DNA from: Macrostomum hystrix | Lineage: Eukaryota > Animalia > Platyhelminthes | Assembly (NCBI GenBank): GCA_950097015.1 | Contig: CATNEN010000007.1 | Coordinates: 6,448,001 to 6,512,000 of the forward strand | Length of the DNA: 64,000 nucleotides | Reading direction: 5' to 3' | In this document: positions 7,968-64,000 of the stretch, piece by piece | Position numbering within the stretch: the first letter of the stretch is position 1 | Layout: each line of letters begins with the position of its first letter | Notes under the pieces: generated by a model | What the model was told of the DNA's origin: nothing | The model's database searches: none | What the model saw: the letters and a program-made list of their open reading frames with translations, nothing else | Translations under genes and position numbers: made by a program

Positions 7968-9195
7968 TCACACAGCCTGAGGCGCCTCCATTGTCGGCAT
8001 GTAGAGCGCGACTCCGACTCCGCCACGCGGCCCGCGACCGTCGAACGAGGATGGAGAGAACGACGAGGAGGACGACGTCGATGAGGAAGTCGATGCGGCT
8101 CCGGCCGAGCCGATGGAACCGCTGGGTGAGCGAGGCCGCCGATGCCGGTGCTGCCTCCGGTGCTGCTGCTGCTGCTGCAGGAAGCTTGGCACGGGCACTG
8201 GGATGACCCGCTGTGAAGGCGGTCTGTTGTCCGGATGCTGTAGCAGCTGGCCATGAAGCTGGTGCTGCTGGCAGCTGAAGCCGGTTGAACTGGTCTGCCC
8301 GGAGCCCTGCTGGGATGCCGGGGTGGCAGCCAGCTCCGCCAGCAACTCCGTGTGCCGCTGCCGCAGCCGGTCGTGCAGACCTCCGGGTGTCGGCCGGAGT
8401 CCGGGCGCCTCGGCCCAGCAGTCGAGGAGGAGGCTGGCAAGGCCGGGCAGGCAGCCGGGCGGGCAGGGCAGCAGCTGGCGCTGGCGAACCAGCTCGATCA
8501 CTTCGCTGTTGGAGTAGCCATAGTAGGGCTGCAGGCCGTGCGACCACATCTCCCAGAGCAGCACGCCGAAGCTGTACACATCGGTCTGGGAGGAGAACTG
8601 GCCGTACAGGATGGCCTCGGGCGGCAGCCAGCGGATGGGCAGCAGGCAGCGGCCCTGAAGTCTGTAGTAGTCGCAGCTGTACAGATCCCTGGCCGCGCCC
8701 AGGTCGCCCAGTTTGCACTGCAGCCCGTCGCCTAAAAGTACATTCCTGGCGGCTACGTCCTTGTGCACAATGCAGCGAGATGCCAGGTACTCCAGCCCGG
8801 CTGCCACCTGGGAGGCCAAGTGCAACAGCTGGACGGAGCTAAGACCCGGCTCGCTGTAGTCCTGCTGCTGCTGCTGCTGCTGTTGCTGCAAGCGGTCACT
8901 GGCCGCCGGACTGTGGAAGATGAGAAACTCGTGCAGGTCGCCATGTGGCAGCGTCTCCTGCAGCTGGGCGAGGGGTGTCTGGCGCAGAGAGGCGCCCAGC
9001 AGGCAGACCAAGTTGGGGTGCCGCAGCTCCCACCTCGCCTGCGTGTCCCTGGCGAACTCGGCCTGCGTGCGGGCGTCCGCCCCGGCGCTGAGGCACTTGA
9101 TGCTCACCGGGGTCAGCGACGTGTCCGAGTACAGGCCGATCAGCTCGCCTCTGTACACCTTGCCGAATGCCGACTCGCCAATCTCGTCACCGAAG
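7968..9195 (-). CDS. Ror: ROR last exon: tyrosine kinase domain plus Gln/Ser-rich tail
   Basis: ORF 7968-9248; acceptor cgcag|C at 9195 joins SQIR to FGDEIGESAFG. Confidence 0.93.
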
Positions 9196-12100
9196 CTGCG
9201 AATGTTTTTGGCAGGATTTTCAACGCAATCACACTTTGAACTTTCCATATTTGGATTTTGTTATCAATGAAATATCGCTTCTGCCTCCGACCTCTGAGTT
9301 TGAAGCCTTGAGCATTATACTCAAATTTGGAATTCCGCATCGGAGCTCTAAGCTGATTTTGCTCATCTTAGGGGAGGTGGGGGACTTACCAGGCCACCCA
9401 GAGACTGCCGTCTCCCTTTTATCCAAGGTTAAACTGCTCAACACTGCTCGGCGCCATTATTATCAGTGCAGGGCGCTAATCTTCCCACCTGCTATATTTA
9501 GACTTCCACGAAGATTTTTGCTTGGTCTAAGCCGATTTTCTCCCGCAGCCTGCAGACTTAACTAAGAGCGTACCAGTTTCCTTGTTATTGCCCTGTTTTC
9601 TCTATTTAAAACATAATTTATTATAGACTATAGTAAAACAAAACAACCACATTTATACCCCCGAGTCTGCGACCGATTTTACTCAATCCTCAGTGTTGAA
9701 ATAAATCTGCTTGTAAAGACCTGTTTTAAAAAACAATCAGCTTATCTGGCTGGCGCCGGGACAAACCTAACCTGACCTTTCCCGGAATCGGGTATGAAAT
9801 CACCCGATTTATTTACAGTGTTATTTACTCATTTATTTACAGTGTTATTTACTCATTTATTTACAGTGTTAGTGGGCTCGAAGTTAAAGAAGCTAAAGAT
9901 ATACGGTTTGGGGTGGGGTGTGCGCATGTACGCTGGGCGACAGGAAGAGGGAAAGAGTTTGAGGGTGGTCAGTGTACAATAAGGGGTAGAGAGACGAGGG
10001 GAGACGCGAGCGCGTGGCGGGATGTGGAGGACTAGAAAGGATTAACAAAGTGAACGATATGGCACCATTACATAAAATCTACTATGCTATGCCGCAGTCT
10101 GGTTCCGAGTGTTGGCAATCTCCTAGTTTGCGGCCTTAAATTATCTTTACATTTTTGCTCACCGGGAGGGTCACAGGGTACTAACTGCTCGAAATGGTTG
10201 AACAGCAATGGTTGAACTGCAAAATCATGCTGTCGTCAATCACAGGCTGCATTTTGTGGGCCCTAAAGACCCCACAGTCCACACCAACACCATCGAGAAT
10301 TGGAGGGATATTGGGCCCATGTCAACCCAAATTCATGGCCACTTCTGATGCCCTATTTGAGAGCCATCTCGACGAAGACTCTTCCAAGACTCTTCGCATG
10401 GAATGCGTTTGGCAACTTTCTACGTAAATTGGCGACAGCACCACTTAGACCAAAAGTTACTAGCTGTGGAATAGCTGTGTGCCTGCGGCTGTGTCACGAT
10501 TTTACATCTGGCCTAACTGGGCATAATTTCCCTCGGTATATCGAGTTGCTCACCGGATCTGACTTAGTGAGAATTCCCTGACTTGAACTGGCTGTGACAA
10601 CAGGCTCTGTTGCTGCTGCTGTTGCTGCCTGTTGCGCTTCAACTCGCCCGGTGTCGATGGGGGCACCGGTGGCATGGGAGACGTCGCGGCCGCGATGATT
10701 AGCTGGCGTTTCACCAGGCCGGTATAGCCTCCGCCTGGTTCGCCGCCGGGGCCTCCCAGACTGTGCGGCGAACCGCCTGAGGCAGACGCGGCCGCCGCCG
10801 CCCGCCGGCAAAAGCAGCAGCCGAGCAGGGTGGCGACAGCCAAGCAGGCGAGGGCGCCCAGTGACACGAACACCGGCAGCATTTCGCGGACTGACATCGG
10901 CGGCGGTGTTGCAGCGCCGGCAGCCTCCTTCCCGCGCCGCTTGCCGCCATAGCCGCCATCTACGGAGGGTCGAAGTCGAATTTACGTTAAAATTTTTGCA
11001 AAGCACTATTTTGCTACTTTAAGTAGAAATGCAAGATTGCTCCCATCTTTTTAGAATTTCTAGCTAAATGCAAGCAAGCCAAATCCCACACCCAGCTAGT
11101 ACAGCTCCTCACCTCCGCAAAGCGGAACAACGCAATCTTCGCGTTCTCCCGTCTCGCTAACGAAGCACCACGGCGCGATGCCTTCGCCGCCAAGGCCGTC
11201 GCTGCCGACGCCACCGCCGCCACGGCACCAGTTTCTGTGCCCGGCCAGTCCACCGTAGCCCGGAAATCCGGCCCAGGGGAGGCAGGCGCGGCCGGACCTG
11301 CCAGCGGCGACCCGACCTGCGTAGCTCCAAGGCTGCGTGGCGTTGTAGCAGTCGACAGTGTCCATGGAAGTTGACGACGAGGGCTGTTGAGGTGGCTGCT
11401 TTGGTAGCGGCTGCGGTCCAGCCGGTGGCAGCGTCGGCTGTGGCAGGGCCTGCATAAAGACGCAGCGATCCGTGGGCAGCGAATCGCAGTCGGGCAGCAG
11501 CTGGGCGAGGTCTGTGAAGGTTGAAGGTAAGATCTTGATCCAAACATCCCATATCCCAACATCCCATATCCCAACATCCCATATCCCAACATCCCATATC
11601 CCAACATCCCATATCCCAACATCCCATATCCCAACATCCCATATCCCAACATCCCATATCCCAACATCCCATATCCCAACATCCCATATCCCAACATCCC
11701 ATATCCCAACATCCCATATCCCAACATCCCATATCCCAACACCCCATATCCCAACATCGAACTCTGACCAGAGCTGTCTGAGCCGCTTCCCCGTCTCAAA
11801 TAGTCAAGGCTGGTGCGCAGGATTTCTAAGTGTCGCCTGCACCGGCCGCCGACAGCCGAGCGACAGTCGGCAGCGCACAGCCGCCTCGGCGAAGCAGTTC
11901 CGGCCGACAGTCCTTCGGGGTCGAGCGGCGGTGAGTCTTCCGAGCACAGCGGGAAGTTGTAGTGGCAGATGGCCTGCGTGAGAGGCTGCACGCAGTTTGG
12001 CTCTACAATGTCGGCCAGCTTGGCTAGGACTGGGTGAGATAAATGGTGAGTCGATATGTATTAAAAAATGCGAACATGCTGTAAACCAGGGGTCGGCAAA

Positions 12101-39085: not shown

Positions 39086-39376
39086 TCACTCTTGCTTGGG
39101 CCAGCTGCAGCAGCAGAACCCTGTTGATTGGCCTCGCCGCCACATGCAGATGTTGGGCTGGCAGCAGTCGCTGTGCCGCCTACAGGGCGTGGTGAAGGCC
39201 TTCACCGATTCCCGCGGACTGCAGTTGGGCCGCGCCGAGGCAACAGCGGCGGCCAGGGCCTCCTCCGAGTTGATTGCGGAGGCCGCCGAAGTCAGGCTGA
39301 ATAGCGACGTCAGCAGTAGGACGGCCGAGCAGATAACGGCAAGCCGGGCGCAGGTGGCAAGACTGCTATTCGACAT
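39086..39376 (-). CDS. Small secreted Cys-rich (knottin/toxin-like) precursor, 96 aa
   Basis: MSNSSLATCARLAVICSAVLLLTSLFSLTSA (signal), Ala-rich pro-segment, then PNCSPRESVKAFTTPCRRHSDCCQPNICMWRRGQSTGFCCCSWPKQE. Upstream TATATAA, a 5'UTR intron (39452-39378, GTAAGT...CAG) and a downstream AATAAA (38942-38937). Confidence 0.75.
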   Translation of the reverse strand: MSNSSLATCARLAVICSAVLLLTSLFSLTSAASAINSEEALAAAVASARPNCSPRESVKAFTTPCRRHSDCCQPNICMWRRGQSTGFCCCSWPKQE

Positions 39377-39560
39377 CCTGACAGCGGGTGTTGGCGGGCT
39401 CTCATAGAAATCAATAGAAATCATATAAGAAGGAATGCATGTCAGAACTTACCTGATAACTAGTTTTCTCCGGGCGCTTCGACAGAATCCGTACCAGTGT
39501 GGGTCCGCGCTAGAGTTTGAGCAGAGTCGCTGCGGGTCTCTCAAGCGTGGGCCCGCCTTC

Positions 39561-46184: not shown

Positions 46185-49100
46185 TCACATGACATCGCAG
46201 AGAAGCGCCACGCCGCGCATCACCCAGTGATCGGCCGGCTGGTTGGTACGCAGCTTGATGGTGGCCACGTATGTCAGGTCGGTGCGCCGCGGCTTCTTGT
46301 AGATGGGGCACATGTACAGCCGCTCGTCCTTGCTGGCACCGTTGATGGCGTAGATGTGTACCACGGGCAGCGGCTCGTTGAGGATCTTCGGCCGCGCCTC
46401 CGTCAGGCGATTGTTCTTCCGGTCCCAGCCGGCGCCCTCGAGGAACAGGCCGTGTACGTAGACTCCCTCGGCTGGCGGGCTGTGCACATCGGCCAGCACC
46501 ATTTTGGTGACGTCATTGTGAAGCAGGACGCCGTCCAGGGCCCAGCCCTTGTGGGCGCGCGTCACCTCCTGACGCATGGCGGTCAGGAAGCCCTGCGGAT
46601 TGAAGAAGCCGGTCATCCAGAAGCAGTTCGGCCGGCCGTTGAACACCCAGGTGTTGAACTGCTGGTTCCTGTTGATCAGCTCCGTAAACCAGAAGCCGAG
46701 TGCCGATGAGTCCCAGGAGATTTTGCGCCACACCTGCGGTATCTTTGCATCGTACATGGAATCGAGAGCGTCACGCAGGTTCTCGTTCATGATGATGGTG
46801 CCATCGATGGCCAGCTTCAGGTCCGTGAGGGTGGTCCGCACCGCGGTGATTACGCGCTGCATGCGATCCACCTCCTGCCTGAGGAAGATGTTCATTGGCT
46901 GGAGCGCGCCCATCTTCTGCAACCGCTCTCTCACCTCAAACGGCACGTAATCATTTGGTAGTTTTTCCAGCAGGTCGTCGGCCTGCTTGTACACCACCGT
47001 CTCACGCGTCTCACCGGAGCCGCCGCCGGAGTCCTTCGGCTGGATGCTGAGAATACAATCCAGGATGGCCTTTGTGGTTCTGCCCTGGTAACTGATGTCC
47101 GCATTGGCGTGCAGGCCGAACACCTGAGGCGTGTCGTAGCCTGGCAGGTTCTGGATGTACTCCAGGTACTCGTTGAGCTTGGCAAACTTGGGAATGCTGT
47201 AGCCTTTATAGAACTCGAATGTCGGCTCGAACATGCGGTCCGAGAACCAGACCCGGCAGAAGGTGTTCAACAGGATCTTGTCGTAGTCATCCGTGACTCG
47301 GCCTCCGTACTGGATTTCGCCCAGCATGTAGCGCACGGTGTTCCAGTTCACGCCCTTCTTGATGTCCATGTCATCCAGGTGGTTCTGCACGAACTGGATG
47401 CTGGCGTTGAGATCGGCCGTGTTGAACTCGTAGGGAATATTCCAGCCGATTGGACCGAACTTCCTGCGCTCCTGGACCACGGTGTGGAGGAATGCGACGC
47501 AGTAGAGCATCGGGCGCCACTGCGGCATGTTGCTGATGTCTAGGAAGTCCTGCGTGAAGCTCGTGTAGGTTCGCTTGAGGCCAGCCTTAACGCCCTGCGG
47601 CGGCTCGTTGGTGAACTTGATGGACTGCTGCAGGAAGGAGATGGGGAACTTCTTGTGCACCTCGCAGGTTACCCAGAGGCTGAAATCCTCGTGAACATTC
47701 TCTGCCTCGATTAGCTGGTCCATAACTTCCAGCATGTAGTCCAGGGACAGGTGGCAGTTCTGCAGCAGCACCCAGCCACCGTTCTGCAGCGAGGTAGACA
47801 TCAGACGCCTCGCGTGGACTTCCTGACCCTGACCCATGGAGATCGCCTTGCACTCCTTCTTGTGCTTCTTGGCGAGTTGCTCGATGCTTGGCGTCGGATC
47901 CGAGCCCATCGACAGTAGGCCGACCATGGGTGTGCGCGGCTCCGACTCTTCCCACACGGCCTCGACATCCAGGATGACACCTTCGGCGAATTTCTCGCCC
48001 AGACTGTCCGAAATGTACTTCTTGGCTTGCGAGAGCGTGCGGTCCGGGCACCAGGACCGGATGAGCAGCAGGCGCCGGAAGGAGTCGAGGTTGGTGCTGT
48101 AGCCGTCGGGAATGATCTCCTCCTCGGGGGCTTCTTTGTCGAACCACTGCTTCCAGGCCTTCTCGCCGCGCGTAATCTGATCAAGGATGCCGGAGAATTG
48201 GTGCAGGTTGGACAGCTCGACCAGGTTGAGCCAGGTGGAGTCCAAGATCCACTTGTACGGCTTTGGCTGCACGACGTTCAGATCAAGCGATGCTCCACCC
48301 TTAATAAGTGTCTGAAACTCCTCGTGTTTCACCTTCTTCGAGTGCATGTCGATCTTGAGGGCCAGCAGCAGCGTGAAGGTCAGCTTGTCCTCTTCGTACA
48401 GTCCACGCGCAGCATACTTCCACACCTCGTAGGTCATGAAGTCGATGATGTTCGTGATTCGTTTGGCTGTGATTGGGGACTTTGTCGATCTATCCATCGA
48501 CAGGTCGAAAAGACCAAGGAACTGCCTGAGCGAGGTCTGGTACATGACGTTCACCATGGACATTTCAGTGATGAGGAAGTACAGGATGGAGCCGCGGGAA
48601 GCCACTGGGCGGTACTCCTCACGGGCGGAGGCGATCTTGATCTGGGTCTCCTTGGCGATTTCGATTTTCTGGCGCACATCGGACGAAGTGACTTTTGTTT
48701 CCTTCAGCACGCCGATGAGCTCCTCATCGTCCACCAGAGATCCCTGAGTGCTGGTTAGCCGGTACAGCAGCGTGTCCTCCAGGTTCTTCATGATCTTGTT
48801 GTTGTTGGTCACGTCCTCCATCAGCTGCACCCGCTGCTCCTCCAGCTCCGCCTTCTCGGTCTTGATTACGCGACCCAATAGCTGGTCCTCCAGGCCCTTC
48901 ATTGTCACGGTGAAATCAATGATGCTAGTTCGGGCGAAGATCTCGGGCGTGTAGGACGGGTTCGGCAGCTTTGTTGTGATGAACAGGGAAAAGCCTTTGA
49001 GCACGTCTACCTCCTTGTCGCCAACCTTCACCTTCAGGGTAGAGCCCTGCTTGATAAAGTTTTTCTCCAGGACATTGTCCAGAGCGGGGTCGAGCTCCTC

Positions 49101-51362
49101 GTTGATGTCCTCAATCAGTAGCGGTCGTCCCAGAGACAGCGCATCTTCCAGATGCTGGCGGAAGTATTTGTGGTTGAGCGATGTGATCTGCAGCTCGTGC
49201 GCAGTCTCTCTGTTCTTCAGCCAGATCTTGCCCTGGCCCTGCGGATCAATCAGCAGTGGGAAGCGGCTGGCCTGGGTCACGATGATGCCGTTCTCCGTGC
49301 TCAGCTCGTCATTGGGCAGGCCCTGCAGGTTCCACTCGGCAATGGTGGTGGCCTCCACCAGCATCTCGATGAGGTTGAGCGTGTCGCTATAAGGAATCTT
49401 GCGCTCCTTCAGGTTCTTCTGCCAGTTCCGGTTCAGCAAGAGGCGGAAGTCCTGGTTGAAGGGACCCGAATACGACAGGAATGCTGTGGCCATCAGCACG
49501 TCACCGACCAGCCTACCGATCTGGGCCTTGTACTCCTTGCTCTGGCGCGTCCAGCGCTCCTTCTCGTCAGCCAGGCCGGTGATGAGCTGCTCGGCGGCAT
49601 TCATCTTCCTGCGGCAGGCGGCCGCATCTTCCTCCAGCGCCTGTTTCTTGCGCATCGCCTCCTCGTAGACTGCGCGCACCTTGGCCAGCTCAGCTTCCTT
49701 CTCGTCCAGGGTCTTCTGCGCCGCGGCCAGATCTTCGTTGGCCTTGTGCAGGCGGACCTCCTGCTTGGCGAGGTTGTCCTTAAGCGGCATCACCTCCTTG
49801 TTGATCCAGAAGAAGTCCTGCATGGCCTTGGTCCACGACAACAGGCCGGCGACGTTACCGCAGACGCGCTTGGCGGTCTCAAAGTTGTAGTCCTCCATCT
49901 CCAGGTAGGGCATGAGGAACTCAATGCTCTCCTCCGTCATTGAGTCCTTGGAGAACTGGACGAGCATGTTCAGGAAGCCGGTGTTGGACATGAGCTTGAG
50001 CGATTCGGCCCAGCTGGGCTTGGCGCAGGGCCGCTCCGGGTCCTGAGTCACCGGGTCCAGGTGGCGCTGGAACAGCATCAGCACGCAGTCCATGATGCGC
50101 ATGATGAGGTGTGGCGGCTTGCCCAGCTTGCGCACCGTGGCAATGTCGGCCGGCTTGATTGTATTCAACGCCTCCTCGGCCGCTTCCAAGGCCGGTCGGG
50201 CGGCCTCAAGCTTGCCCTCGGCGATGGCCTTGTCCTGCGCGATTGAGTCCACGATTGCCTGGGCACGGTCCTTCACAACCTGCACCTTGTTCTTGACCTC
50301 CTGAGCCGCCTGCTGCTGAATTGCCACCTGCTTGAGCACTTCCTCGGCCTCTCTGTTGGCAATGGCGAGCTCTTTCTCCTTCACAACGAGCTCCTCGCTG
50401 AGGATCTTGACAGACTCCTGGGCCTCGAGCAGCTTCTCAAGACCGCTGTCCATGCGGCCAGCCAGGCCCTGGTAGAATTGCAGCTTGTCCATGTAGATCT
50501 TCTTGTAGCCCTGCAGGAAGCTGAGGTATGACTTTGGCGTCACGTGGGTGCTGCGGCGGTACTTGTTGAAGTAGTCGACGCAGCTCTCTGCCACACCATC
50601 GTGCACAACGCCCATGGTCTGGATGAGGTCGTGTTTGACTGCGTCTGTGCACACAATCTCGAACTTGGACAGGAAGTGGTCGGCCACGGCCACCAGCGCA
50701 TCGCGCGGCCAGCGCTGGAACCAGTCCATTGTGCAGCCGGAGATCAGGGCCGGGAACTTCAGGGCCCGACTGCGGAATTTCTCACCGACTGGCGAGAAGC
50801 ACAGCACAACGTGCAGGTTCTGCCGGGTGCGGGATAGGAAGTACTCCTGCAGATTCTCGTTGGTTGGCGGTCGCCTCGGGAACTCCTTCTTCATTACGCC
50901 GATGAGCTCCTGGCAGATTTCGTCCATCTCGTCTCTGGGGAACAGGTTCGATACGACGCCCGAGGCCAGGACGTTGTTGAGGTACTCCAGGAAGCTCTCG
51001 TCCTTGATCTCATTATCCGTGAACACGAAGGTGATGCCCTTTCCCTGCTGGCCGGCGGTGCGGTACAGGAACTTCAGGTCCTCCATCAGGTTGGAGACGT
51101 TGTAGGAGCGGGTCAGGGTGATCTGGAAGGTCTTGTAGCCGGCGATGAAGGAGGCCAGGCGGGTGAGCGACTGTTTGCCAGAGCCGCCGACGCCCACCAG
51201 GAGAGCATTGCCGCGCGGCGTGCTGATGATGCGCGAGATTTTCACCAGGTGGGTCATGGCGTCCTGGAAGAACACCAGGTCCATGCCGGCGCCGCGGATG
51301 CTCTCGTTGTACTGGCTCATGAAGTGACGGAGGCGCTCGCTGAGGGCCTCAAAGGACGGGAT
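46185..51362 (-). CDS. DNAH5: Dynein heavy chain last exon (AAA4, stalk/MTBD, AAA5-6, C-terminal domain)
   Basis: 1748-aa ORF; acceptor ccgcag|ATC at 51362. Confidence 0.95.
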
Positions 51363-54300
51363 CTGCGGGGTGGGGAGCAGGTGATGAGGGCCTTCGTGCA
51401 CAGCGCAGACACTCGCGCGACGGTGTCCCACAAACTCACCGGCTCGTAGATGTGCGGCATCTCAAAGCTGGCGTCGTCCGGCTCGTCTCCCGTAGCCTCC
51501 GGGGCATCCCTAAAATCAAAGGTGAAATGCGCTCGGTCACTATTACAGTTTGAGCTGATTGGTAACAGCTATCGATTTACCCTTAATAGCTTATGACTCT
51601 CTGAATGACCTACTCGTATTTAACGCTGGAATGAGGGATCTATACCCTCTGGTTAAGCCCTTAGCTCTTTGTGTCTTCTCAGAATTATCTGGTGGCTAAT
51701 CGCATTCTATACGAGTACACACGGATGAGCAAGATGTGGCAGATAATTAAAGCGCAGCGATGCGTACAACTATTGCGTGTTAGTGCGTGTTAGTGCGTGT
51801 TAGTGTGTGTTAGTAGCAAGTCTGGGATTACACTGAGTGCACCTGGTGTCTATTGAGGATGAGACGGTTCTGTCGGCAGCCAAGCTTGGCCATGTTTATT
51901 ACGATTCGGCACTGGGCCATGCCCGCAGCTAAAGCAGGCGTAATAAAAGTTTGCCAAAATATCGTGCTTACAGCCCAGACTAGCTCTAGGGGGACCCATG
52001 CTGAATTATTGAGAAGCCAAGCATGGCAACTAAGCCCGCCAATGCATTATGGCTTAAAGCGGGACACATCCCGTGCGTCCCTGTCTACAACTTTTATTAG
52101 CCTGGCGAGACCTGAGAAAATTCACGAAATAGTCTGTCTGGTCAATGTCGAACTGGTCGCCAAGGTCCTCCTGAACGAGGCGCTTCATAGTCTTGTCGAA
52201 CCAACCAATGTCGGCGAATGTCACGAATCTGAGAGGGTATGACGCGGCGGCGAAGTGGGCGAGGAACAGAAGAGCGAGCAACGACCGCTGGACAGGGTGA
52301 AGCTTTTGTTCAACAATTAGTGTGTTCTGAGACTGAGTCCTGATCGGACATTGGTGTGTGTTCTGAGACTGGGTCCTGATTGGACATTGGTGTCTGTTCT
52401 GAGACTGGGTCCTGATTGGACATTGGTGTGTGTTCTGAGACTGGGTCCTGATTGGACATTGGTGTATGTTCTGAGACTGGGTCCTGATTGGACATTGGTG
52501 TATGTTCTGAGACTGGGTCCTGATTGGACATTGGTGTCTGTTCTGAGACTGGGTCCTGATTGGACATTGGTGTGTGTTCTGAGACCGGGTCCTGATTGGA
52601 CATTGGTGTGTGTTCTGAGACCGGGTCCTGATTGGACATTGGTGTCTGTTCTGAGACTGGGTCCTGATTGGACATTGGTGTCTGTTCTGAGACTGGGTCC
52701 TGATTGGACATTGGTGTGTGTTCTGAGACCGGGTCCTGATTGGACATTGGTGTGTGTTCTGAGACTGGGCCACTAAACTTAGGTCTTTCAGTGCAAATAT
52801 GCAAATGTGCAAATAGTTACAAAGGTTACAAATTTATGGAAAATCAAGAAATATTAGCTGGTGCGTAAATTATATACTCGACAGTTTGATCGCCAAATCA
52901 AATAATGAGGCTGTTAAAAACGGCATTCCAGAAGGGGGCTATTAGCGATCGCACGGTGAGCAATCAGCATTGGGTGCAGCATGTTTCTAAGGTGCATTAT
53001 TAGTGCTCATAGTGGACCCCGCGCTGCCTAAGCCTTGGCTCCGGAAACCACCTGAGAAAGTCGACAAAGTAGTGCGTGGACTCCACCAGCTTGGCCATGT
53101 CCTCGCCCATGTCCTCCACCAGAACGCGGGTCATTGTCTTCACAAACCAGTTCACGTCGTCGTATGTTACGAATCTAAATTTAGATAATTTTCAAAGAAG
53201 AAAAAAATGCTGCGAGAGCAAGACAACGAGCAAGTTCCCACAGCCAGGAGCAACAATCAAAGGAAAAGGCAAAGGAAGTATCCTTCTAGAAAGATAATAA
53301 AGCAAGTGATTTTTGCAGTGTCTTTCTGCTGACTTAAGGCCTTGTTATCTTACCGATGCGGATGACTGAGATTTTGCTAGCTAAATCTGAAATTTATGCT
53401 AAGTAAATAGATATGAGCCAAGAATTTAGATTGGATGGGAGTGCTTTCTATGAAACAGCGACTCCTACCTGTCGGAGATGACTCGGCAGCACTCGTGCTT
53501 CCACAGGCTCAGCAGCGTGCCGGAGTCCTTGATGACCTCGCTGACGGTGTTGATCATGCCCTGCCAGATGCGACTCAGATCGCGCAGGTTGAACACGTAG
53601 TGAAACTTGGCTGGCGTTGGCAGCATCTTGATCTTCGTGAGCTGCCAGAGGCGCCTTGTCAGCGGCACCAGCTTGCTCACCATGCCGCGCACCTCCTCGG
53701 AGAAGCCGCGTTCTTCGCAGTAGTGGCCGCAGCCGATGATGCTGAAGATCTTGTCGATGCTGGGGTTGGACGGCAGGGTGCAGTTAAAGATGTTGAACTG
53801 CCGCTTCAGGCGCTGCGGAATGTCGTTGCGGCCGCCGCCCGGGTGGATCATTGCGGCCATGAACTGCATGTCCACAATGGTGGTGAAGTCGCCTGGCTTC
53901 TCCAGGTTGTAGAAGCCGGAGTTCTCCATCAGCTGGCGGACGATCTCGTTGGCGATCTGATCACCCCACTCGTTGATGACCGGCATGTTGATGTCGTCGA
54001 TAAAGACCGTCATTCGTCGACCGGCCGGCGGGCCAAACGTGGAGCCCATTCGCTTGTCTACGTAGCTCTCGATGGTCCGCTGGAACATCATCGGCGTGGT
54101 GGCGCTGGAGAAGTTCAACGCCTTATTCATGTGCTCCTCCGGATTGAAGCGGGCCAGGAACTTGTTGATCATGACGGTCTTCGCCGTGCCCTGCTCACCG
54201 ATCAGAAGCACCTGCTTCTCCTGCCTGTGGATGGTGTGGATGAGGAACTCCGTGCGCACGTTGTCCACGTTCGGCACCAGAATGGAGCCGTACTCCGGCG

Positions 54301-57300
54301 TGCTGTCCTTCGGATAGAGGAACTCCTCGACTTTCTCATCCCAATGCTGCCAGGCGCCGGACTCGCTGACCAGGAAGTCATACATGGTGCTGTCGGAATC
54401 GGCCGGATACTCCGGCAGGTCCAGCTTGAGCTCTCGCATCTTGACCTCGAGCTTGTTCCGGTCCTCCCACTCAAGCAGCGCACCCACAGACCACATGATG
54501 GTGAACACGTACAGGCGCCTGTAGTACTCCGGCCGTAGAGCGCCTTCCTTCTCTTCGCGCTTCGGTATCAGGCCTTCGAGCAAGTCGCAGCACTGTCGCA
54601 CGATGAATGCCTCCAGGACGTTCATCTTGAAGGTTAGGAACTGGGTGGCGTGGCGCATGATCTCTGGGAAGGAGGCCTCGAACAGTGGGAACAGCTGGTC
54701 GCGCTCAAACGTCGGCCTCTTGAGCAGCCAGCCGCTGAGCAGCGGGTTCCAGTTGAGGCCAGAGCTGGACATGTACACCATGCCGTTGCGGGACACGGTG
54801 GCGGGCGACGCGTTGTCGATGTTGTGCACCTCGAAGATGATCTTGCAGTTGGGCGCCATGGGAATTCGATCACCGTTGGCCAGTGTCAGGGTCTTGTTGT
54901 CGTCCAGTACGGAGTTGAGGTTTTCAATCCAGATGGCGTCCACGGGGCCGTCCAGCACCAGCCAGATGTGCTCGCCCTTCTTGGCCTTCAGGGTGCGCCG
55001 CCAAAGCGTGGAGAAGATGCCGTCAGTCCAGTCGTTGGTGGCCACGTCGAGCCGGCCGAACATCTGCGGAGCCGTGATGGCCTTGGGATTCATGCGGAGC
55101 TCGCGGTGCGGCTCTCCACAGTCGGTCATGGCCTTCATCAGCGTGTGGATGCAGCGGGTCTTGCCGGCTCCAGATGGGCCCAGCGTCATCATGCCGTGGC
55201 GCACGCGCTGCGTCTCGAACAGCTGAATGAGCTTCAGGTTCCAGGAGTCCCAATTGATGAGCTCCGCCTCCTGCACCTGCTTGGAGATGGCGGCCTCCAG
55301 CTGCGGGTAGCCCGCCTTGTCCAGGGTGATGCCTGCAGGGTTGTTGAGAGGTGAAGCAGTGTCGCAATAACTTTATGTTTTTGACAGCACAATTCTATGA
55401 GTTGGCTTATGGCAAAAAGCTGGAAAACGAGAGACTCACCCGGGAATAGGTCGTTGATGAGCGAGAGGAACAGCGGCTCGTCCTGGTCCACCAGCTTGGA
55501 CAGGTTCATGTCTCGCAGCACTCGCATGACGGTGGTTTGCTCGCTGTCGTTCGGGTTGGACCGCTTGACAGTGCCCAGGGTGCGCAGCACTGACAGGATG
55601 TTGCGCAGACCGAAGTCGTAGTGCACCTGGAAGGTTGGGGATCGCATTTTGTGAGATATTGAACGCAGATTAGTTTCAGCTAGCTTATTACAGAGGCACG
55701 TATTGCGGAGCGGTGTTGCACCTGTTTTGTGAGCTGCTCCTCGCAAAGCTTGTACAGTGTAAAGAACTTCCTGGCCAGGGTGACATTGTCGATGAAGCCA
55801 ACCGAGGCCAGCTTGACGCGGATGATGATCTGCCGGTCGGGCACCATCATGGCCACGGTGCGGAAGTTGATCTTCAGATTCTCTGGCAGCTCCTGACGGC
55901 CAGCGTAGCCGGGATTCATGGTCAGGAAGATGCCGAACTCCGGGTTCATCTCCACAAGGTCACCGTCGGTGAAGATGAACTGCTTCTTGCGCTCCTTCTT
56001 GCAGGAGAGCACGATGGCGATCTGCTGGGCGGCCACCGACAGCACCGGAAGCTCGATGCGGTTGAACTCGTCGAAGCAGCCCCAGCTACCGGACTGGGCC
56101 AAACCCTGAGTGCGGCCAAGCAATTAAGGGCGGGAATACTTGTACAGGGCATCGAGACAGTACTTTGGCCCTACTCTAAGGCCTAGCAAAAATAGTTTTC
56201 GCTAATTGACAGTCTTATCGGAGTCTCTCTCCAACGTCCCTGAAGGCCAAGGACCAACCCCCAAGTCTCAGTGACATTGTGCACTGCCTGGCGAGGAAAA
56301 GTTAGGTCAGATGTACGAGTTTTACACAGCTATGTGAGGTTGTGCACGCATGCGTTTCCATGCGCGCATGTTTGCTCAGGGGTCAGTGAAATAGACAGAT
56401 GTCTCTCAGCTCTTACCTTGTAGATTCTGCCGAGACCTCGGAAGTCCATCTGGTCGGAGCAGTTGAACACCACCACGTACTTGCCCAGGCAGCGGCCCAT
56501 GTCCTTGGTGGTCTCGGTCTTGCCCGTTCCGGCTGGGCCGGCCGGAGCGCCGCCCATGGACATTCCCAGGGCCTGGGCCAGGGTGATGTAGCAGCGATCA
56601 GTCAGCGGCGTGATCACAAGGCGTTCAGTGCAGCCAAGGAACTCGTTCTGGTATTCAAAGTCCACATCAGTGATGCTAATCAGGCACTTGTCGGTGTCCT
56701 CAACAAAGTAGAAGCGAGTCTGCTTCAGCCACTCAAAGTCGGTCGGGGATTTGATGTGCATCTTGAAGAGGTCTTCAAAGATGTCGCGCTGGTGCACGTG
56801 GATGGTGATGAGCGTCTCGAACTTGGTGCGCTCAACCTTGGTCAGCTCTCGCGTGGTCTGTTTGATGAGCGTGTTCAGCAGGTCAATGAAGCTCTGGTTG
56901 GTGTTCGCCATCACTTTCTTGTCAGTTTTGGCGTTGTTCAAGGCATCCGTGGAGTCGCGGGTCCAGATCAGCTGAATGCCCAGCAGGCCGATCTGCGCAG
57001 GAAACATGTCGAGGAACTCCAGGATCTGGAAGTTCTGGTCGCTGATAGCCATGTAGGCGGTGCGGATCACACCGTGCAGCGAGCGCTGGCTCTGCTGCAT
57101 CAGCGTCATTAGCCACACTTCGACATTGCCCTCGGCTTTGACAGGCTTCTCCAACTCCAACTGCTCGCCTTCGCTTGAGTAGCAGGCCAAGATGGTCTCG
57201 TACTGTTTCTCGTGGAACTTCACCGTCTTGATGTTGTCGAAGATGGAGAGCAGGTGGGCCTGGATGGTGTGCGGGTCGGAGGCCTGGCCCAGGATCTCCA

Positions 57301-60300
57301 GCAGGGCCGGGTCGGACACGAAGAAGAAGCGCGGGAACAGCAGACGCTTCTTCTCCAGGTAGCCAGTCAGGGACTTCTGGCAGAGCTCCAGCTGCTCGAG
57401 CAGGTGTGGCAGAAGCTGCGAGAGAGTCTCGTCACCGACGCAGCACTGGATAACGTTCGTCGTCTCGTGCGCCCGGGTCATGATCTTGATCCAGCTCTTA
57501 TCGATGTTGCTGAATCGCTTTGCCTCCTTTGGCAGCTGCTTGGCGATGTCGCCACCAACGAACACAGCCTCGAGGTAAACCCACAGATTCTGCACCGTCA
57601 TCCACTGCTCGATGATCTCGGAGCTGTTTGACAGGTTGCTCACCCACTGCTGAATTTGCTTCTTGAACGGGGCGTTGTATCGGTTGCTAAGCAGCGAGCT
57701 GAGCACCATCAGCGAGTCTTCCATGAAGCTGATGATCTCGCCAGTGTGGTCGCCTCTCAGGAGCAGCTCGCCGCGATTCTTAAATGTACCAAAGCGAAAT
57801 TCGTGGCTGCTCCACTCGGCAATGACTGCCTTAAGCTTGGCTTCAATGTCCTTTTCCTTAACTGCGCTAATGCAGATGTCTTCAATCTCTTCTTTGTACT
57901 GCAACAGCGGCGCTTCCAGGATGTTTCGAAGCGTGAAGCCGTCCCCTTCGACGTCGAAGTTGTGCTTAGTGAGGTCGGACATTCGCTGCCAGTGACGGGG
58001 CTTCATGGCCTTGTTGGTCATCAGCTCGAGCAGCGGGACCATCTCGTTGAAGTTGTCGATTGTCTTGCTTAGATCAGCAAAGGCCGGCCAGTCCTTCAGC
58101 GCCTTTGGAAGTTTTCGACAACGATTCTGGAACTCCTGCAGCTCCCCGCTGATCTTCTCGATGTCAACCTCCGTGAACAGAATGTCATAGTAGCCGTTGA
58201 CAGTGTTGATTACATCATTGTAGAGGCTGTAGAGCTTGGTCAGCAGGTTCAGCTCCTTCTTGATCCGGTGCAGCTCAGGATAGTCGCTCACCTGAAGGCC
58301 GAACAGCTCTTCGCCGCCAGTGTAGGTGATGAACTTCCTGTTGAGGTTGTCGAACTGGTTCTGGAAGATAATCAGCCGGTCCGACGCCTCTCTCGGTGGA
58401 ACGCCTGGCACCATTGGGCCAGTATGTTCGTAGTCCTGATAGAAGCGGTTGCAGTCGTTTTTGAAGACAACCACCTCCTGCACAAGGTTGTCGCGAAAGT
58501 CGGACTGGATGCTGACCAGGTGATTCTGCACCTCGATTCCGTGGCCGCGCAGCTTCTCCCAGGTATAGCGCAGGGTATCCACTCGCTCGGCCTCTTCCGT
58601 TGGCACAGGGAGTTCGTGCTTGTTGAGCATTGCGTAGGACTCCTCAATTGGCGCGATGCCCATGTCGATGCGAATCTCGTTCTCCCGGATGTCCTTTAGT
58701 GCCGCCATGGCAATGCGGATGTCATCCAGATCTTTGATGGGCCTGCTGAGCCGTTTCTCCACGTCCTCAATGAAGGCAAAGAACTCTTCCATCTCAGCCT
58801 TGTACTTAAGATTGCAGGAGCGGCCGTAGAGCAGCCGCCAGGCCTTGGTCTCCGTGAGCAGGCCCAGCTTGAGCCGCTCAGTGAAGATTGCCACCGGACC
58901 GCAATCATAGGACACCGGCTCGCTGTTGATTCGCTCTTCCTCTCGTTCGAACTCGATGATCCTGGCCTCGTACTCGCCCAGACGCGGCGACTGGCTGACG
59001 AATTGCTGCAGCGTCTCCTCCCGGCTCTGCTCCCAGATGTACTTGTAGCGGTAGAATCGCTCCAGCGCTGTCACAATCTCCTTCTTCTGGCTGTTGATGG
59101 CAGTCGACAGCAGGGAGGCCAACTTGGCCACCTCCTTGTTCTCCGAAACGTTCTTGAAGTAGTTGTTCGCCTGCATCTGCACAGTGTATTGCTCCGTGGT
59201 GCCATCCTCGCTTTCTTGTCTCTGGCGGTGGCTGCGCAGGCCGGCTCGAGACGCGGCCACGTCCGACTGGCCGGACACATCCGTGGGAGCCACGCTGGCG
59301 GCCACGCTGCCCCGCCGGGCATCCGATCTGGCAGTGACGACCTCGCCCTCGGTAGTCTCGAATGCCATTTCGTCTGTTTCGGGTGCCTTGGCCTTCGTAG
59401 TCTTGCGCTCCTTGGACCACTGTGAGATTCCTTTGCTGACCCCGATGACGCAGTGGCAGGCCTTGTTGACGCACTGCTGCACATCCTCAGTGGTGGGCTG
59501 CACCACCACCTGAGGAATGGCTAGCATGGCGAAGCATTGGAAGAACGGCCGCTGAGCACTTCCCGCCCTGTCGTACGCGACCAGAGTTGAAGCGGTGATT
59601 CGCTTGCGCAGCGCCTCCAGCGTATTGCGCGTCACCTTCACGATGGAATCCATGTTCCTGTGGTTGAAGTGGCTCAGTAGCTCCATGGCGGCCTCCTCAA
59701 TCTGCGCCTTCTCGTCCTTCTTGGGCCGACGCAGAGTGCGTTCGCCATCTTGCTCGGCGGGAGCATCCTCAGCCGGCTTGCCACCCTCCTCTGTCGGCAC
59801 CGGCTGTTCAGACTCCTCGTCTCCAACGAGCATGTTGATGAGCTCGTTCACCGCCTCCTCAACGTTGATGCTCTTCACCTGGAGCAGCTGAGCGCCCTTG
59901 TGGCACAGGCTCTGCGTGCGCTCCAGAAAGGCGTCGATGGTCCAGGGCTCGTGGTCGGGCAGCTCGCACAACTGCACGGTGGCCATCTCGTCAAGCACTT
60001 GGTCGATGCGGAACTCGCGCAAATCCTTGGCCCGGCTCAGTAGCAGCTCCAGATCGCGCATGTCTGCGTACACGTCCTGGATGTACTTGTCCGTGCCCAG
60101 GCTCATCCAGTTTAAAGTTGTGAGGCCGGGCTCAACAACGCGGCGCAGCCGATTGAGCCTGGGGCCCATCAGTGGCTCGTATTCTGGTGGTACGCCATCT
60201 AGGATGCGATTGTACCCGACCAGCATCATGCCGAGGCCCTCATAGTGCCTCTTAATGGCCACCTGGCGCGCTCGCAGATGCTGGGCCGCCAGCGGGATGT

Positions 60301-63290
60301 CCATGCCCAGGCGCGCCATCAGCTCCGTCTCTCTGATCAGCGTGAGGATCTCAGCGTCCAGGTTGATGAACAGCCGCTTGGTCTCCGGATGACGCACCAG
60401 CAGCGAGGCTTTCAGTCCGGTCTGAGCCGACTGCACCTGCTTAGTCCAGGCGCGATGGTAGAGCATCTCAAATGCCACCAGCACCTCGGCCAGCTTGTTG
60501 TAGTTCTTCACGATCCGCTTGCCCTCCGGGCTGGCCAGCAGCTGCGGCATGCCCTTGAACAGCACCATTGGCTCCTCGATTCGGCGGAACAGCTGACGGG
60601 CCCAGCAGATTTTGCCACCGATTGGAGGCAGGTCGCGAGCGATCGGCGGTTCGTCCTTGTTCTTGTTGTAGATGCGGACGGCGCTGTCCAGCTCCTTGCC
60701 ATAGAAAACGAGGATCTTCTGGTACTTCTCCTCGATGCCAAGGCGCGGAATGCGCAGTCGTTCGAAGCGCTTTAGCGTCTGCAGCGCGCGATAGGAGCTG
60801 GTCAGCTTCTCAAAGCGCGCGTCCATGAAGGCCTGGATGCTGCCCTGTAGTGAAAAGATAATATGGTTTCAGCAGTCAGTATACATAGGCATCTAAAAAC
60901 ACTCGCAGGGCCGAACATCCTCAAGAATCTCACCTGCAGCTCCAGAATCTGTCGCTTGAAGTCCTCGAAGTCATTGTCGAAGTCCGTCCTGCGTTGGTCC
61001 AGGAAGTCGTACGGCTTCTTCTTCATGCCGACAACGATGACATTGAACTTGGCCGCCATCATCTCCATGCCTTCGATCTTCGACTCGGCCAGGTGGGAGA
61101 ACATCTCCATGGTCTGGAACATCTCAATGATCTTTTTCAGTCGGCGGCAGAAGGTGTCGAACTTTCCAAATATGTACATCTCGGAGAATTCGAACTTCTT
61201 CTCGTTGGGCATCTGCTCCAGCTTGTGCTTGGTGCGCTGAAAGCAGGCCTGGTACTCCTCGTTGAGTCTGATGCAGTGCTTGAGCTTGGCGATCACCTGG
61301 TCGGTTGGTTGGGACCAGATGGTCTCGGTGCGGGCCAGGCTAATGTAACTCTTGCAGGCGGTGATCATCTGGTTGGTCACCTTCACGAACAGTGACGTCA
61401 TGCGCTCCGAAGTGTTGTAGTAGCGCGAGATGCTGTGGATCATGCGGATGCCGTTGATCAGCTTGGGAATCATGTCCACCATCTTCACTGGGTCGCTGTG
61501 GTACAGAGGCATGCAGTGCTCGTCCAGGGTGTACAAGAACTTAACATTGTCCTTGGCCTCGTTGGCGTTGTCCGTGATGCGGCGGTCCATCTCGAACCAG
61601 GTCTGCGGAGGCGAATTTGCTTGTTCAGTGGCTCTGTCCTTTTGATATTCTTTAAAAACCAATCACTTCCCGCATCACTCCCACGAACAGCATAAACACA
61701 AAAGAAAGCAACACTACCACACCTACTCACAGTAGCTAATATGAGATTTAAGCACCGAGTCTACGCTCGAAAGCCAATCCAAAAAAATATATTCATCAAT
61801 CAAGCTAAAATGCTGATGGACAAAGAAAGGAACAGAAGAGAGGCGTTGCTATGGTCAGCGCGTCACAGGTGGGGCCGAAAGCTTGCCAGAGCTGCATGGC
61901 TGCACATCGAACCCTCACAATGGCATTCATTGTGCGCGAAGAGCCAACATCGCACAGCACTCCGTCTGCCTTTGAGCAAACTAGACTTGGGCTAAACTAA
62001 GCTCTACTCAGGTAGAGAGGTCGGCGGGGGTCGTCGCAAAGCGTCCATAGCAACAGCTAGCCCGAGGGGGCAGCAGAAGCAGCTACGGAGTGTGTTGCGA
62101 AGCAGAGAAAAAAGTGAAAAGTGAGTTAGTGCGCGCATTAAGCGTGTGAGGTCTATCTTGAGCACAGCAAGATGTCTGGCAAAGGCTGCTGCAAAGAAAG
62201 GACAAGAAAATAACTGCATCTTATTTTCTTCTGCGCAAATTCAAAACAAAGCCGCTGTGCAGACTGACACGCCTGCTTTTGCAGAAAAAACTGCGATTGT
62301 AAAGATAAATATCAGCAGTGTCAGATGAGTCTAAATCTCGTGGGAATTAAACGTGTTTCCAACTTAAATCGCTTGTTGTTCATCGCTCGCCTTTTTACAA
62401 TCGTGTGAACTCCGTGTCTCATGAAGAAAATGCGGAAAATATTTAGAGTCAGGGTGAAATTGAGATGAGTGGCGATGATGTTGATATTTTATCAGAGTTG
62501 TATCGGCTCACCTTCAGCGAGCGCGATTTGGCAGCGTTGAGGACACCCAGCACCTGCTTGACATCGGCCGACTTGAGCTGGTCCAACAGGTAGTTGAACT
62601 TGGCCATGCGCCGCTTCCAGTACTCCAGCTCGGCGCGCGGACCAACATTGTCGGCCTCGCGACGAATCTGCTCGGTCTCGGCCAGCACCTGCTCGATCTG
62701 CTTCATCCAGCCGGCGGCGCAGTCCTCGATGGCCACCAGGCTCTCGGCGTGCGACGCCGCCACGCTCAGGTCGGTCACCGTCTTCAGGCGGCGCAGGTCG
62801 TAGCCTGAGCACGGCTTCAGCACGACCTTATCGTTGATGGTGTCTTGCGCGCCTGCAGATGGGAAAACAGAGTTTTGTTCCCCACTGAATTTCAAGTCTT
62901 TCAGTCCAAGAAGCGCAGAAATAAAAGTGCAATCAAATGACTCACTGTTGAGCATGCCGACAAAGCTCTCCAGACTGTTGAGAAAATTCTGCTTGGCCTG
63001 CTCCTGACTCTCCAGCTGGCCCCAGCCGCCTTGAAGCTCGCGCAGCTGCGGTACCAGCAGCTGTGAGAGGATCTGCTCGATTCCGCGCAGCACGCCGTCC
63101 GAGCCGTCGATGCTCAGAAAGTTGACCTCCTTGGCGATGTTGGCCTCGGTGATGGCCGTCTGGCAGCTGGACCGCATGAACACTGCGCACGGGCCTTTGA
63201 TGGGCGCCGAGCTGCCGTCGGAGACGAAGATGCGGGGCTTCTGGGCCCGCATCGACTTCGTGCCCGGCTGGCCGATGCGGATGTGGTCGG
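46185..63290 (-). CDS. DNAH5: Axonemal outer-arm dynein heavy chain (DNAH5/DNAH8 type); 5' end lies beyond the window
   Basis: Exons: 63290-62946, 62852-62512, 61602-60934, 60844-56417, 56105-55722, 55626-55440, 55332-53469, [53174-53052 or 52228-52112], 51509-51440, 51362-46185. P-loops [10 protein letters not shown] (AAA1), GPSGAGKT (AAA2), GEQGTAKT (AAA3) and GVGGSGKQS (AAA4), with the C-terminus [11 protein letters not shown]. Confidence 0.95.
52112..52228 (-). CDS. DNAH5: Dynein alternative exon B ([39 protein letters not shown])
   Basis: 117 nt, phase 2-2, ctctcag|A...AG|gtctcg; homologous to exon A. Confidence 0.8.
52318..52769. repeat. 42-bp minisatellite between the two alternative dynein exons
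   Basis: ttctgagactgggtcctgattggacattggtgtgtg-type units, ~11 copies. Confidence 0.95.
53052..53174 (-). CDS. DNAH5: Dynein alternative exon A ([41 protein letters not shown])
   Basis: 123 nt, phase 2-2, atttag|A...AG|gtggtt; homologous to exon B. Confidence 0.85.
53469..55332 (-). CDS. DNAH5: Dynein exon (AAA2-AAA3)
   Basis: ORF 53465-55276 extended to acceptor ctgcag at 55332; donor AG|gtagga. Confidence 0.93.
56417..60844 (-). CDS. DNAH5: Dynein exon (tail, linker, start of AAA1)
   Basis: ORF 56330-60826; acceptor ctacag|GGC; donor AAG|gtaaga. Confidence 0.93.
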
Positions 63291-64000
63291 CTGTGAGGTG
63301 AGGTGAGCTGGACTTGCTCAAGTTCCTTGCATTCTCTGCCTATGCTTAACTTTTTTTTCTCATGGGTTCTCAAGCAATACCACATGACCGCATCACAATA
63401 CCATTCAACTGGAACATGAGTCCAGGATCAGTTTGGATTTTTTACAAATAAAACTATTCTAGCTATAAAATACTAGAAGCAGAAAGCATTAGGACTCAAT
63501 CAGCTATAGCTTGTATTGCTGTAATAAGACAGTTTAGGCTCTAAATTTTAACTACCTTGCTCGTCAAAATATGAAAAATACACATATGCTCATCAGGTGT
63601 AGTAGCTTTCACGAACCCCACTGCATAAATATACGAGTAGATAGGTACAAAGCAAAGCAAGTGTTTGAGATCATTGAGTTCAAGTCAAATTGGTGCGAGT
63701 GATTCAGCAGGGAAGCAGAAATTACACCGGAAAAATGTAAGTGATCAATTCAGCTGACACGCAGTGAAACAAAGTTCGTTGATTGTTAGGGCAGTAATTT
63801 TTTTAATGCAGTAAAAATCCGCGTAGCATAAATGTTGACGAAAAATAGAGAATTTATTATTCCACCTGTGACCTCGAGCTTTGTAATTCTACCTGTGGAG
63901 TAGAACTCTGGTGAGTCCTCTGGGCCGGACTTGCCCGCCGCCGCGCGCTGCCTCTGAGACCGGTGGCGCTGCTCTGAGGCGGGATTCGCCGAGAAAGTTT

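Follow-up and report, generated by a model that had tools for sequence, protein, structure and literature searches.

An apparently mutually exclusive pair of exons at the AAA3 lid of an outer-arm dynein heavy chain in Macrostomum hystrix and other spiralians

Among flatworm dyneins, a mutually exclusive exon has been described in SmDHC1, the cytoplasmic dynein heavy chain of Schistosoma mansoni (Pillmann et al. 2011, PMC3228551), and as far as the accessible text of that paper goes, it resembles the locus reported here in that homologous exons stand in tandem, the codons are split at both ends and the gene is a flatworm dynein heavy chain. In metazoan muscle myosin heavy chains, clusters of mutually exclusive exons are located in the motor domain (Kollmar and Hatje 2014, PMC3912159), by which a homologous segment is swapped within one motor gene as in our case; these clusters are ancient, have been lost in some lineages, and have gene duplication as an alternative solution. 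For the dyneins at large, the methods section of Kollmar 2016 mentions splice forms in the motor domain for some of the 3,272 dynein genes curated there. These may include the pair described below, though apart from SmDHC1 the accessible text names no gene, exon or taxon, and the accessible parts of two supplementary files of that study hold no mention of the pair. The diversity of ciliary dyneins is usually ascribed to gene duplication (PMC5100056).

Compared with these systems, the pair considered here differs in several respects. SmDHC1 is a cytoplasmic dynein-1 described in one species, while the present exons belong to an axonemal outer-arm chain, encode part of the AAA3 lid and occur in six phyla; the myosins are another motor family whose clusters have been described in print, while the dynein pair was not found described. 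In fact, a full-text literature search, with most subscription journals outside its scope, returned no description of it: DNAH5 and mutually exclusive exons each come up in the accessible parts of PMC6611504 and PMC11270918 but never together, and PMC2795745 and PMC6357514 contain nothing relevant to the pair. In human DNAH5 (8j07_n0) and the Chlamydomonas gamma heavy chain (7kzm_C), which are of the orthologous class, the segment is present in a single copy. RefSeq models of molluscs and of Lineus, named 'dynein axonemal heavy chain 5-like isoform X1...Xn', already hold both isoforms, but they are automatic and carry no comment on the event, its spread or its function. Altogether this is a real, old and apparently undescribed mutually exclusive exon pair in an axonemal motor ring.

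The window, namely the whole stretch of 64,000 nucleotides from Macrostomum hystrix analysed here, carries a DNAH5/gamma-type outer-arm dynein heavy-chain gene on its minus strand, running from the vicinity of the window edge (Table 1). The DNAH5 class gives the best scores (8j07_n0 1070 bits, 7kzm_C 590 bits; other dynein classes at most 401 bits), and the solved relatives rank with human DNAH5 first, then a chain from bovine sperm, then the gamma chain of Chlamydomonas. Among named proteins, those nearest to the gene are DNAH5-like and come from Macrostomum lignano, with 95-96% identity in the flanking motor exons. In the M. lignano chain P0125, Pfam finds all heavy-chain domains in the expected order, the DYH2-5-8 coiled coil among them, and its residues 111-4640 are covered by the window with 70-93% identity by tblastn. 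The continuity of the reading frame across exons is based on phases, spliced contigs and tblastn.

Table 1. Features of the dynein heavy-chain gene in the window (positions count from the first letter of the window).
Feature	Position	Strand	Remark
Whole DNAH5/gamma-type outer-arm dynein heavy-chain gene	46185..64000	-	5' end near or beyond window edge
Upstream constitutive exon (AAA2-AAA3), end ...VISD-AG	53469..55333	-	upper border estimated by tblastn
Exon A, first copy, non-acidic type, WFVKTM	53052..53174	-	form spliced in, in all RNA contigs seen
Exon B, second copy, acidic type, WFDKTM	52112..52228	-	intact and conserved; no splice junction seen
Downstream constitutive exon, acidic linker before AAA4	51440..51509	-	
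Terminal exon with 1725 codons plus stop, from AAA4 to the C-terminus	46185..51362	-	
36-nt minisatellite inside the A-B intron	52320..52787	.	
TTGCACT, weak candidate splicing element	52790..52796	-	shared with the inter-exon introns of four further spiralian loci
Part of the B pyrimidine tract, complementary to exon A 53100-53109	52256..52265	-	weak candidate duplex, would mask the B acceptor

The original prediction had placed two intact homologous exons, A and B, between two constitutive exons of this gene, and their positions and peptides proved exact. Exon A has 123 nt (acceptor TTTAG/ATT, donor CAG/GTGGTT) and exon B 117 nt (acceptor CTCAG/ATT, donor CAG/GTCTCG); both have phase 2 at both ends, lengths divisible by 3, no stop codon and AG/GT borders, and the introns measure 294 nt from the upstream exon to A, 823 nt from A to B and 602 nt from B to the downstream exon. 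The two peptides align with a score of 102 against a maximum of 30 in 10,000 shuffles, and 19 of the 38 residues aligned within the exons are identical. When the M. lignano chain is compared with the window by tblastn, both exons are placed on its residues 2851-2892, and the same comparison yields no third copy. As a side observation, many minisatellite arrays of varied units are located at window positions 20000-44300, and they resemble the 36-nt array of the A-B intron.

At the protein level, A and B encode the end of the AAA3 lid, namely the last helix of the small subdomain and the strand leading to AAA4. Both match human DNAH5 residues 2833-2876 in PDB 8j07, with weak E-values (0.021), and both encode the same single structural element as in the solved chains. 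In its first half, the segment is covered by Pfam AAA_lid_1, and AAA4 (AAA_8) begins about 50 residues past the exon; either exon alone is scored by no Pfam model. In an AlphaFold model of AAA3-AAA4 built for the A form of M. lignano from 43 sequences (mean pLDDT 57.8), the exon (residues 274-315) folds into two helices, one long and one short, with pLDDT 79-88, and a strand. The overall packing of this model was discarded, since the domains are packed wrongly (TM 0.34 to 8j07), and the lid helices alone (pLDDT 79-92) were used. The human ciliary-dyskinesia (PCD) variants R2833C/G/H and F2843S have been tabulated (PMC10754609); R2833 is the first residue of the segment and F2843 is the F of its WF motif. 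The accessible text of four outer-arm structure papers describes the AAA3 lids of the beta and outer chains as docking onto neighbouring linkers and names no partner for the gamma-type lid, and therefore we claim no contact partner for the latter.

The pair is not specific to this lineage, a point which the original prediction missed. It recurs in six spiralian phyla, namely in the flatworm, molluscs, a ribbon worm, an annelid, rotifers and probable bryozoans, in a sampling without other flatworms, brachiopods and monogononts. The protein set comprised 442 sequences, 376 of them matching the segment pattern, and proteins were grouped by identical flanks of 300 residues on both sides, which gave 222 groups, 25 with more than one segment. 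In 22 of these 25 groups, the proteins form either/or pairs with identical flanks; the other three were set aside, being a single versus a tandem model in M. lignano and one-residue variants in Adineta and Branchiostoma. Among the members listed, RefSeq either/or isoforms occur in at least 12 bivalves, at least 7 gastropods and the nemertean Lineus, and pairs of GenBank models occur in the annelid Owenia, the limpet Patella caerulea and the rotifer Rotaria sordida. RefSeq isoform models generally rest on RNA-seq introns. Considering the spiralian XP_ models among those listed, 102 of 104 have a single copy (47 of one type and 55 of the other), two have both copies and none has neither. Tandem models with both copies number 12, all spiralian and two of them from RefSeq, and come from M. 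lignano, Mytilus, Biomphalaria, Dreissena, Ylistrum and bdelloids, while two Rotaria models are without either copy.

Moreover, the pair can be observed directly in DNA. In a survey of the best 80 of 387 metagenome loci, tandem 123-nt exons with phase 2-2 and AG/GT borders are found in two bdelloid-like loci, L023 and L029 (near-copies L032 and L034), and in two bryozoan-like loci, L059 and L078 (near-copy L079), of which the nearest named protein is from Bugula with 84-86% identity. In some bdelloid-like copies the first exon is lost or broken: it is frameshifted in L030, and L001, L002, L003 and L033 are single. These five loci represent stages of loss, from a frameshifted exon to a deleted exon with its intron kept and a deleted exon with its intron lost as well.

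Outside Spiralia, no exon pair was found among the proteins retrieved, and those of cnidarians, echinoderms, amphioxus, vertebrates and crustaceans have one variant each. The original prediction had stated that DNAH5-type chains carry this segment once; among the proteins retrieved, this is true of cnidarians, deuterostomes and crustaceans and fails for the spiralians. In nine coral-like, ambulacrarian-like or DNAH8-like loci, the 3' intron is present and the 5' intron, which is what makes the exon symmetrical, is absent; in the arthropod-like locus L016, the 5' intron alone is present and there is no pair. From this distribution of introns in the non-spiralian-like loci, the symmetrical exon looks like a later, probably protostome, state.

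The two copies of a pair differ consistently at one site, W+2, which lies two residues past the conserved W and corresponds to human D2844. One copy has D or E at this site and the other has not in 25 of 26 pairs, and in three of four further pairs from DNA, with the reservation that the pairs are related and the counts do not represent independent events. Non-spiralian single copies are acidic at W+2 in 59 of 71 cases, the exceptions being mostly echinoderm or hemichordate. In the acidic-type copies of lophotrochozoans, the V of YFVDF is usually replaced. As to the order of copies, the non-acidic type precedes the acidic type in flatworm, mollusc and bryozoan-like genes, and the order is reversed in rotifers.

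As for the history of the pair, we lean towards a single origin early in Spiralia. In a tree of 74 rows and 41 columns, the two types separate, the support being weak to moderate (83/86 and 54/77), and A and B are never paired; the trees group the copies by type and not by species. With 44 rows, the best constrained tree is that of a single origin by type, which lies 5.0 log-likelihood units from the free tree (p-AU 0.50), compared with 13.0 for a separate rotifer origin (p-AU 0.13) and 19.0 for three independent origins (p-AU 0.11). The leading alternative accepts the pair as real and mutually exclusive, and supposes two or three independent origins, in flatworms, rotifers and lophotrochozoans, with a convergent acidic split; we give it somewhat less than an even chance. 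Such repeated duplication is conceivable since an exon with symmetrical 2-2 phases duplicates easily, and the 5' intron that gives this symmetry is also present in the pairless arthropod-like L016. It agrees with the reversed order of types in rotifers, and AU tests reject no alternative, whether by type or by lineage (p 0.26-0.50 in the other trees and 0.11-0.50 with 44 rows), the smaller trees being without close relatives and single-variant spiralians. Moreover, B is no closer to the second copies of molluscs (40.5% identity) than to the first (44.9%), and a mollusc-trained profile did not assign B to the second mollusc copy. However, the unconstrained trees split A from B and sort by type, three origins cost 14 log-likelihood units above one, the flatworm, mollusc and bryozoan-like genes keep the same order, and as a weak hint the heptamer TTGCACT is common to all five inter-exon introns examined.

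In the flatworm itself, the RNA evidence consists of assembled contigs from eight runs, in two studies of four runs each, which were treated as RNA because canonical introns are skipped in them; according to the tool's own statement, such contigs lose rare variants. A is spliced in and B left out in five of the eight runs. In the first study, the path from the upstream exon through A to the downstream exon (53469>53174 and 53051>51508) is found in all four runs; in the second, A is joined to the downstream exon in one of four runs with no differences, and the other three runs hold related dynein genes only. Thus, of the junctions named by the original prediction for a check, those of A with the upstream and downstream exons were recovered, and the contigs of the eight runs, which drop rare forms, contain neither a B junction (53469>52228 or 52112>51509) nor the A-to-B junction 53052>52228; co-inclusion and double skipping are likewise both unseen in them. 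B is covered only by unspliced contigs with a depth of about 4-5, compared with 29-63 for the spliced path, and missing cover over B was not counted as silence. Separately, a low-depth contig of run X7 joins 63901-63923, near the 5' end of the gene, to 52296, a non-canonical point in the intron 68 nt upstream of B, and this join is probably a chimera.

The sequence of B has the appearance of a constrained coding exon. Compared with M. lignano, B is identical in 33 of 38 residues and A in 33 of 40, both at the low end of 58 forty-residue windows from the neighbouring exons, in which 33 to 40 residues are identical. When A is compared with B, saturation is seen at synonymous sites, of which 7 in 17 differ with 6.9 expected from the codon usage of the gene, while pN is about 0.3; the duplication is therefore old and constrained. 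The GC3 of B (27 of 38) is above the intron level (p=0.002) and below the gene level (p=0.013). In M. lignano, B appears in models from UniRef only; three of them have it in tandem with A, and the fourth, a fragment with bad frameshifts, has B without A. All four GenBank models over the site (P0002, P0123-P0125) have A only, which speaks against use of B. In M. lignano, the single congener compared, B is not decayed.

Taking splicing and conservation together, we hold with good confidence that A and B are tandem duplicates, that A is spliced in and B skipped in the RNA seen, that B is likely a rarer alternative, and that two motors are likely made. The mutual exclusion that had been proposed from this one gene is supported by the A-in/B-out splicing, the conservation of B in M. 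lignano and the either/or isoforms in at least 20 RefSeq species; a B junction was not seen in the contigs of this flatworm. It could be argued that B in Macrostomum is left over from the ancestral pair and no longer spliced, being dormant or silenced only very recently, as no B junction occurs in eight runs, unspliced low-depth contigs alone touch the exon, its donor GTCTCG is non-consensus, and the bdelloids demonstrate that the loss of one copy is possible. We regard this as improbable, since B is conserved equally with A between the two Macrostomum genomes, its frame and both splice sites are intact and its GC3 is codon-like; besides, the donor of A is weak too and assembled contigs drop rare variants.

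If B is indeed spliced in as an alternative, the gene would give rise to two motors which are identical except for about 41 residues where the AAA3 lid ends, the B form probably being used in a minority of ciliated cells. The swapped helix and strand would likely retune the packing of the AAA3 lid on AAA4, or a contact with a neighbouring subunit or surface, and with it the beating of two classes of somatic cilia. The fuller reading, in which one copy keeps the acidic residue usual elsewhere and the other loses it, TTGCACT selects between them and two classes of somatic cilia beat differently (say, those of the ciliary band or epidermis on the one hand and those of flame cells or gut on the other), is put forward tentatively and is rather doubtful as a whole. 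Spiralian-specific ciliary-band genes are known (PMC7441323), and they make a ciliary specialisation in spiralians plausible.

A different division of labour would be between sperm flagella and somatic cilia, as in the mammalian paralogues DNAH8 and DNAH5. This idea draws on analogy alone and is plausible in molluscs, nemerteans and annelids, which have flagellate sperm. However, the pair is kept in bdelloids, which have no known males. It is also kept in Macrostomum, whose sperm are aflagellate (10.1101/2021.03.28.437366). For these two reasons, two kinds of somatic cilia are likelier, and a split between sperm and cilia is unlikely to be the whole story. That both exons are instead joined in one longer chain is highly improbable despite the 12 in-frame tandem database models, since the RNA contigs link A straight to the downstream exon, 102 of the 104 RefSeq models among those listed have a single copy, solved chains show the segment as one structural element, and gene predictors generally tend to chain in-frame duplicates; the possibility that the copies are always co-included is therefore contradicted by the contigs.

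As to how exclusion might be enforced, two mechanisms were considered and put aside. Frameshift followed by decay is ruled out as both exons (123 and 117 nt) keep the frame, and steric hindrance is argued against by the 823-nt A-B intron and an AG-free zone of just 57 nt before B. Since the frame is kept and the long intron with its short AG-free zone speaks against steric blocking, regulated splicing, by a splicing factor or by RNA pairing, is the likely way, and the donors of A and B are both weak. Two candidates were spotted post hoc. The duplex between exon A (53109-53100) and the B tract (52256-52265) has an energy of -38.2 kcal/mol, which none of 100 shuffles and four of 92 other coding windows reached, with a pairing probability up to 0.99 in the regional fold; a similar duplex is significant in none of four other loci. 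TTGCACT is the sole 7-mer common to all five inter-exon introns (one of 2000 shuffles), with p 0.05-0.15 when one locus per phylum is taken. Docking/selector duplexes after either donor are not significant (16 and 26 of 100 shuffles).

Some further motifs were observed in the neighbouring introns. In the intron after B, window positions 51771-51810 contain four ACTAAC motifs in a 10-nt repeat, which we take to be of the QKI/How type; they are absent from that place in four other loci. In the bdelloid-like loci, CAC/YCAY clusters are located after the second exon and between the exons (L023:3390-3460 and L029:6642-6735), and are nearly absent from the other introns of L023 and L029.

A core outer-arm motor thus appears to be diversified by splicing within its ATPase ring throughout a superphylum whose members use several kinds of cilia for swimming and feeding. 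As the difference between the paired forms is confined to one segment of 41 residues and consistently includes one charge beside F2843, which is mutated in human ciliary dyskinesia, they offer a natural experiment on the role of the AAA3 lid in axonemal dynein. The choice between A and B is a possible molecular marker of cilia types and the pair a possible shared derived trait of Spiralia; moreover, the pair explains a recurring annotation error, namely the double-exon models.

Several minor observations can be added. The M. lignano paralogue P0005 (Mlig025839) and the gastropod paralogues P0199-P0204 and P0210 are DNAH5-like with a single segment each, of acidic or non-acidic type, and gene duplication may have split both forms in these cases. 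Elsewhere on the minus strand of the window, labelled by eye, a 430-codon open frame at 7971-9260 looks like a ROR-type tyrosine kinase domain, and a 383-codon open frame at 3-1151 looks like a piece of a large lipid-transfer protein. A short open frame at 39089-39448, also on the minus strand, combines a hydrophobic stretch resembling a signal sequence with an end rich in cysteines (C..C.CC..C..CCC), and by eye its product resembles a small secreted knottin-type peptide.
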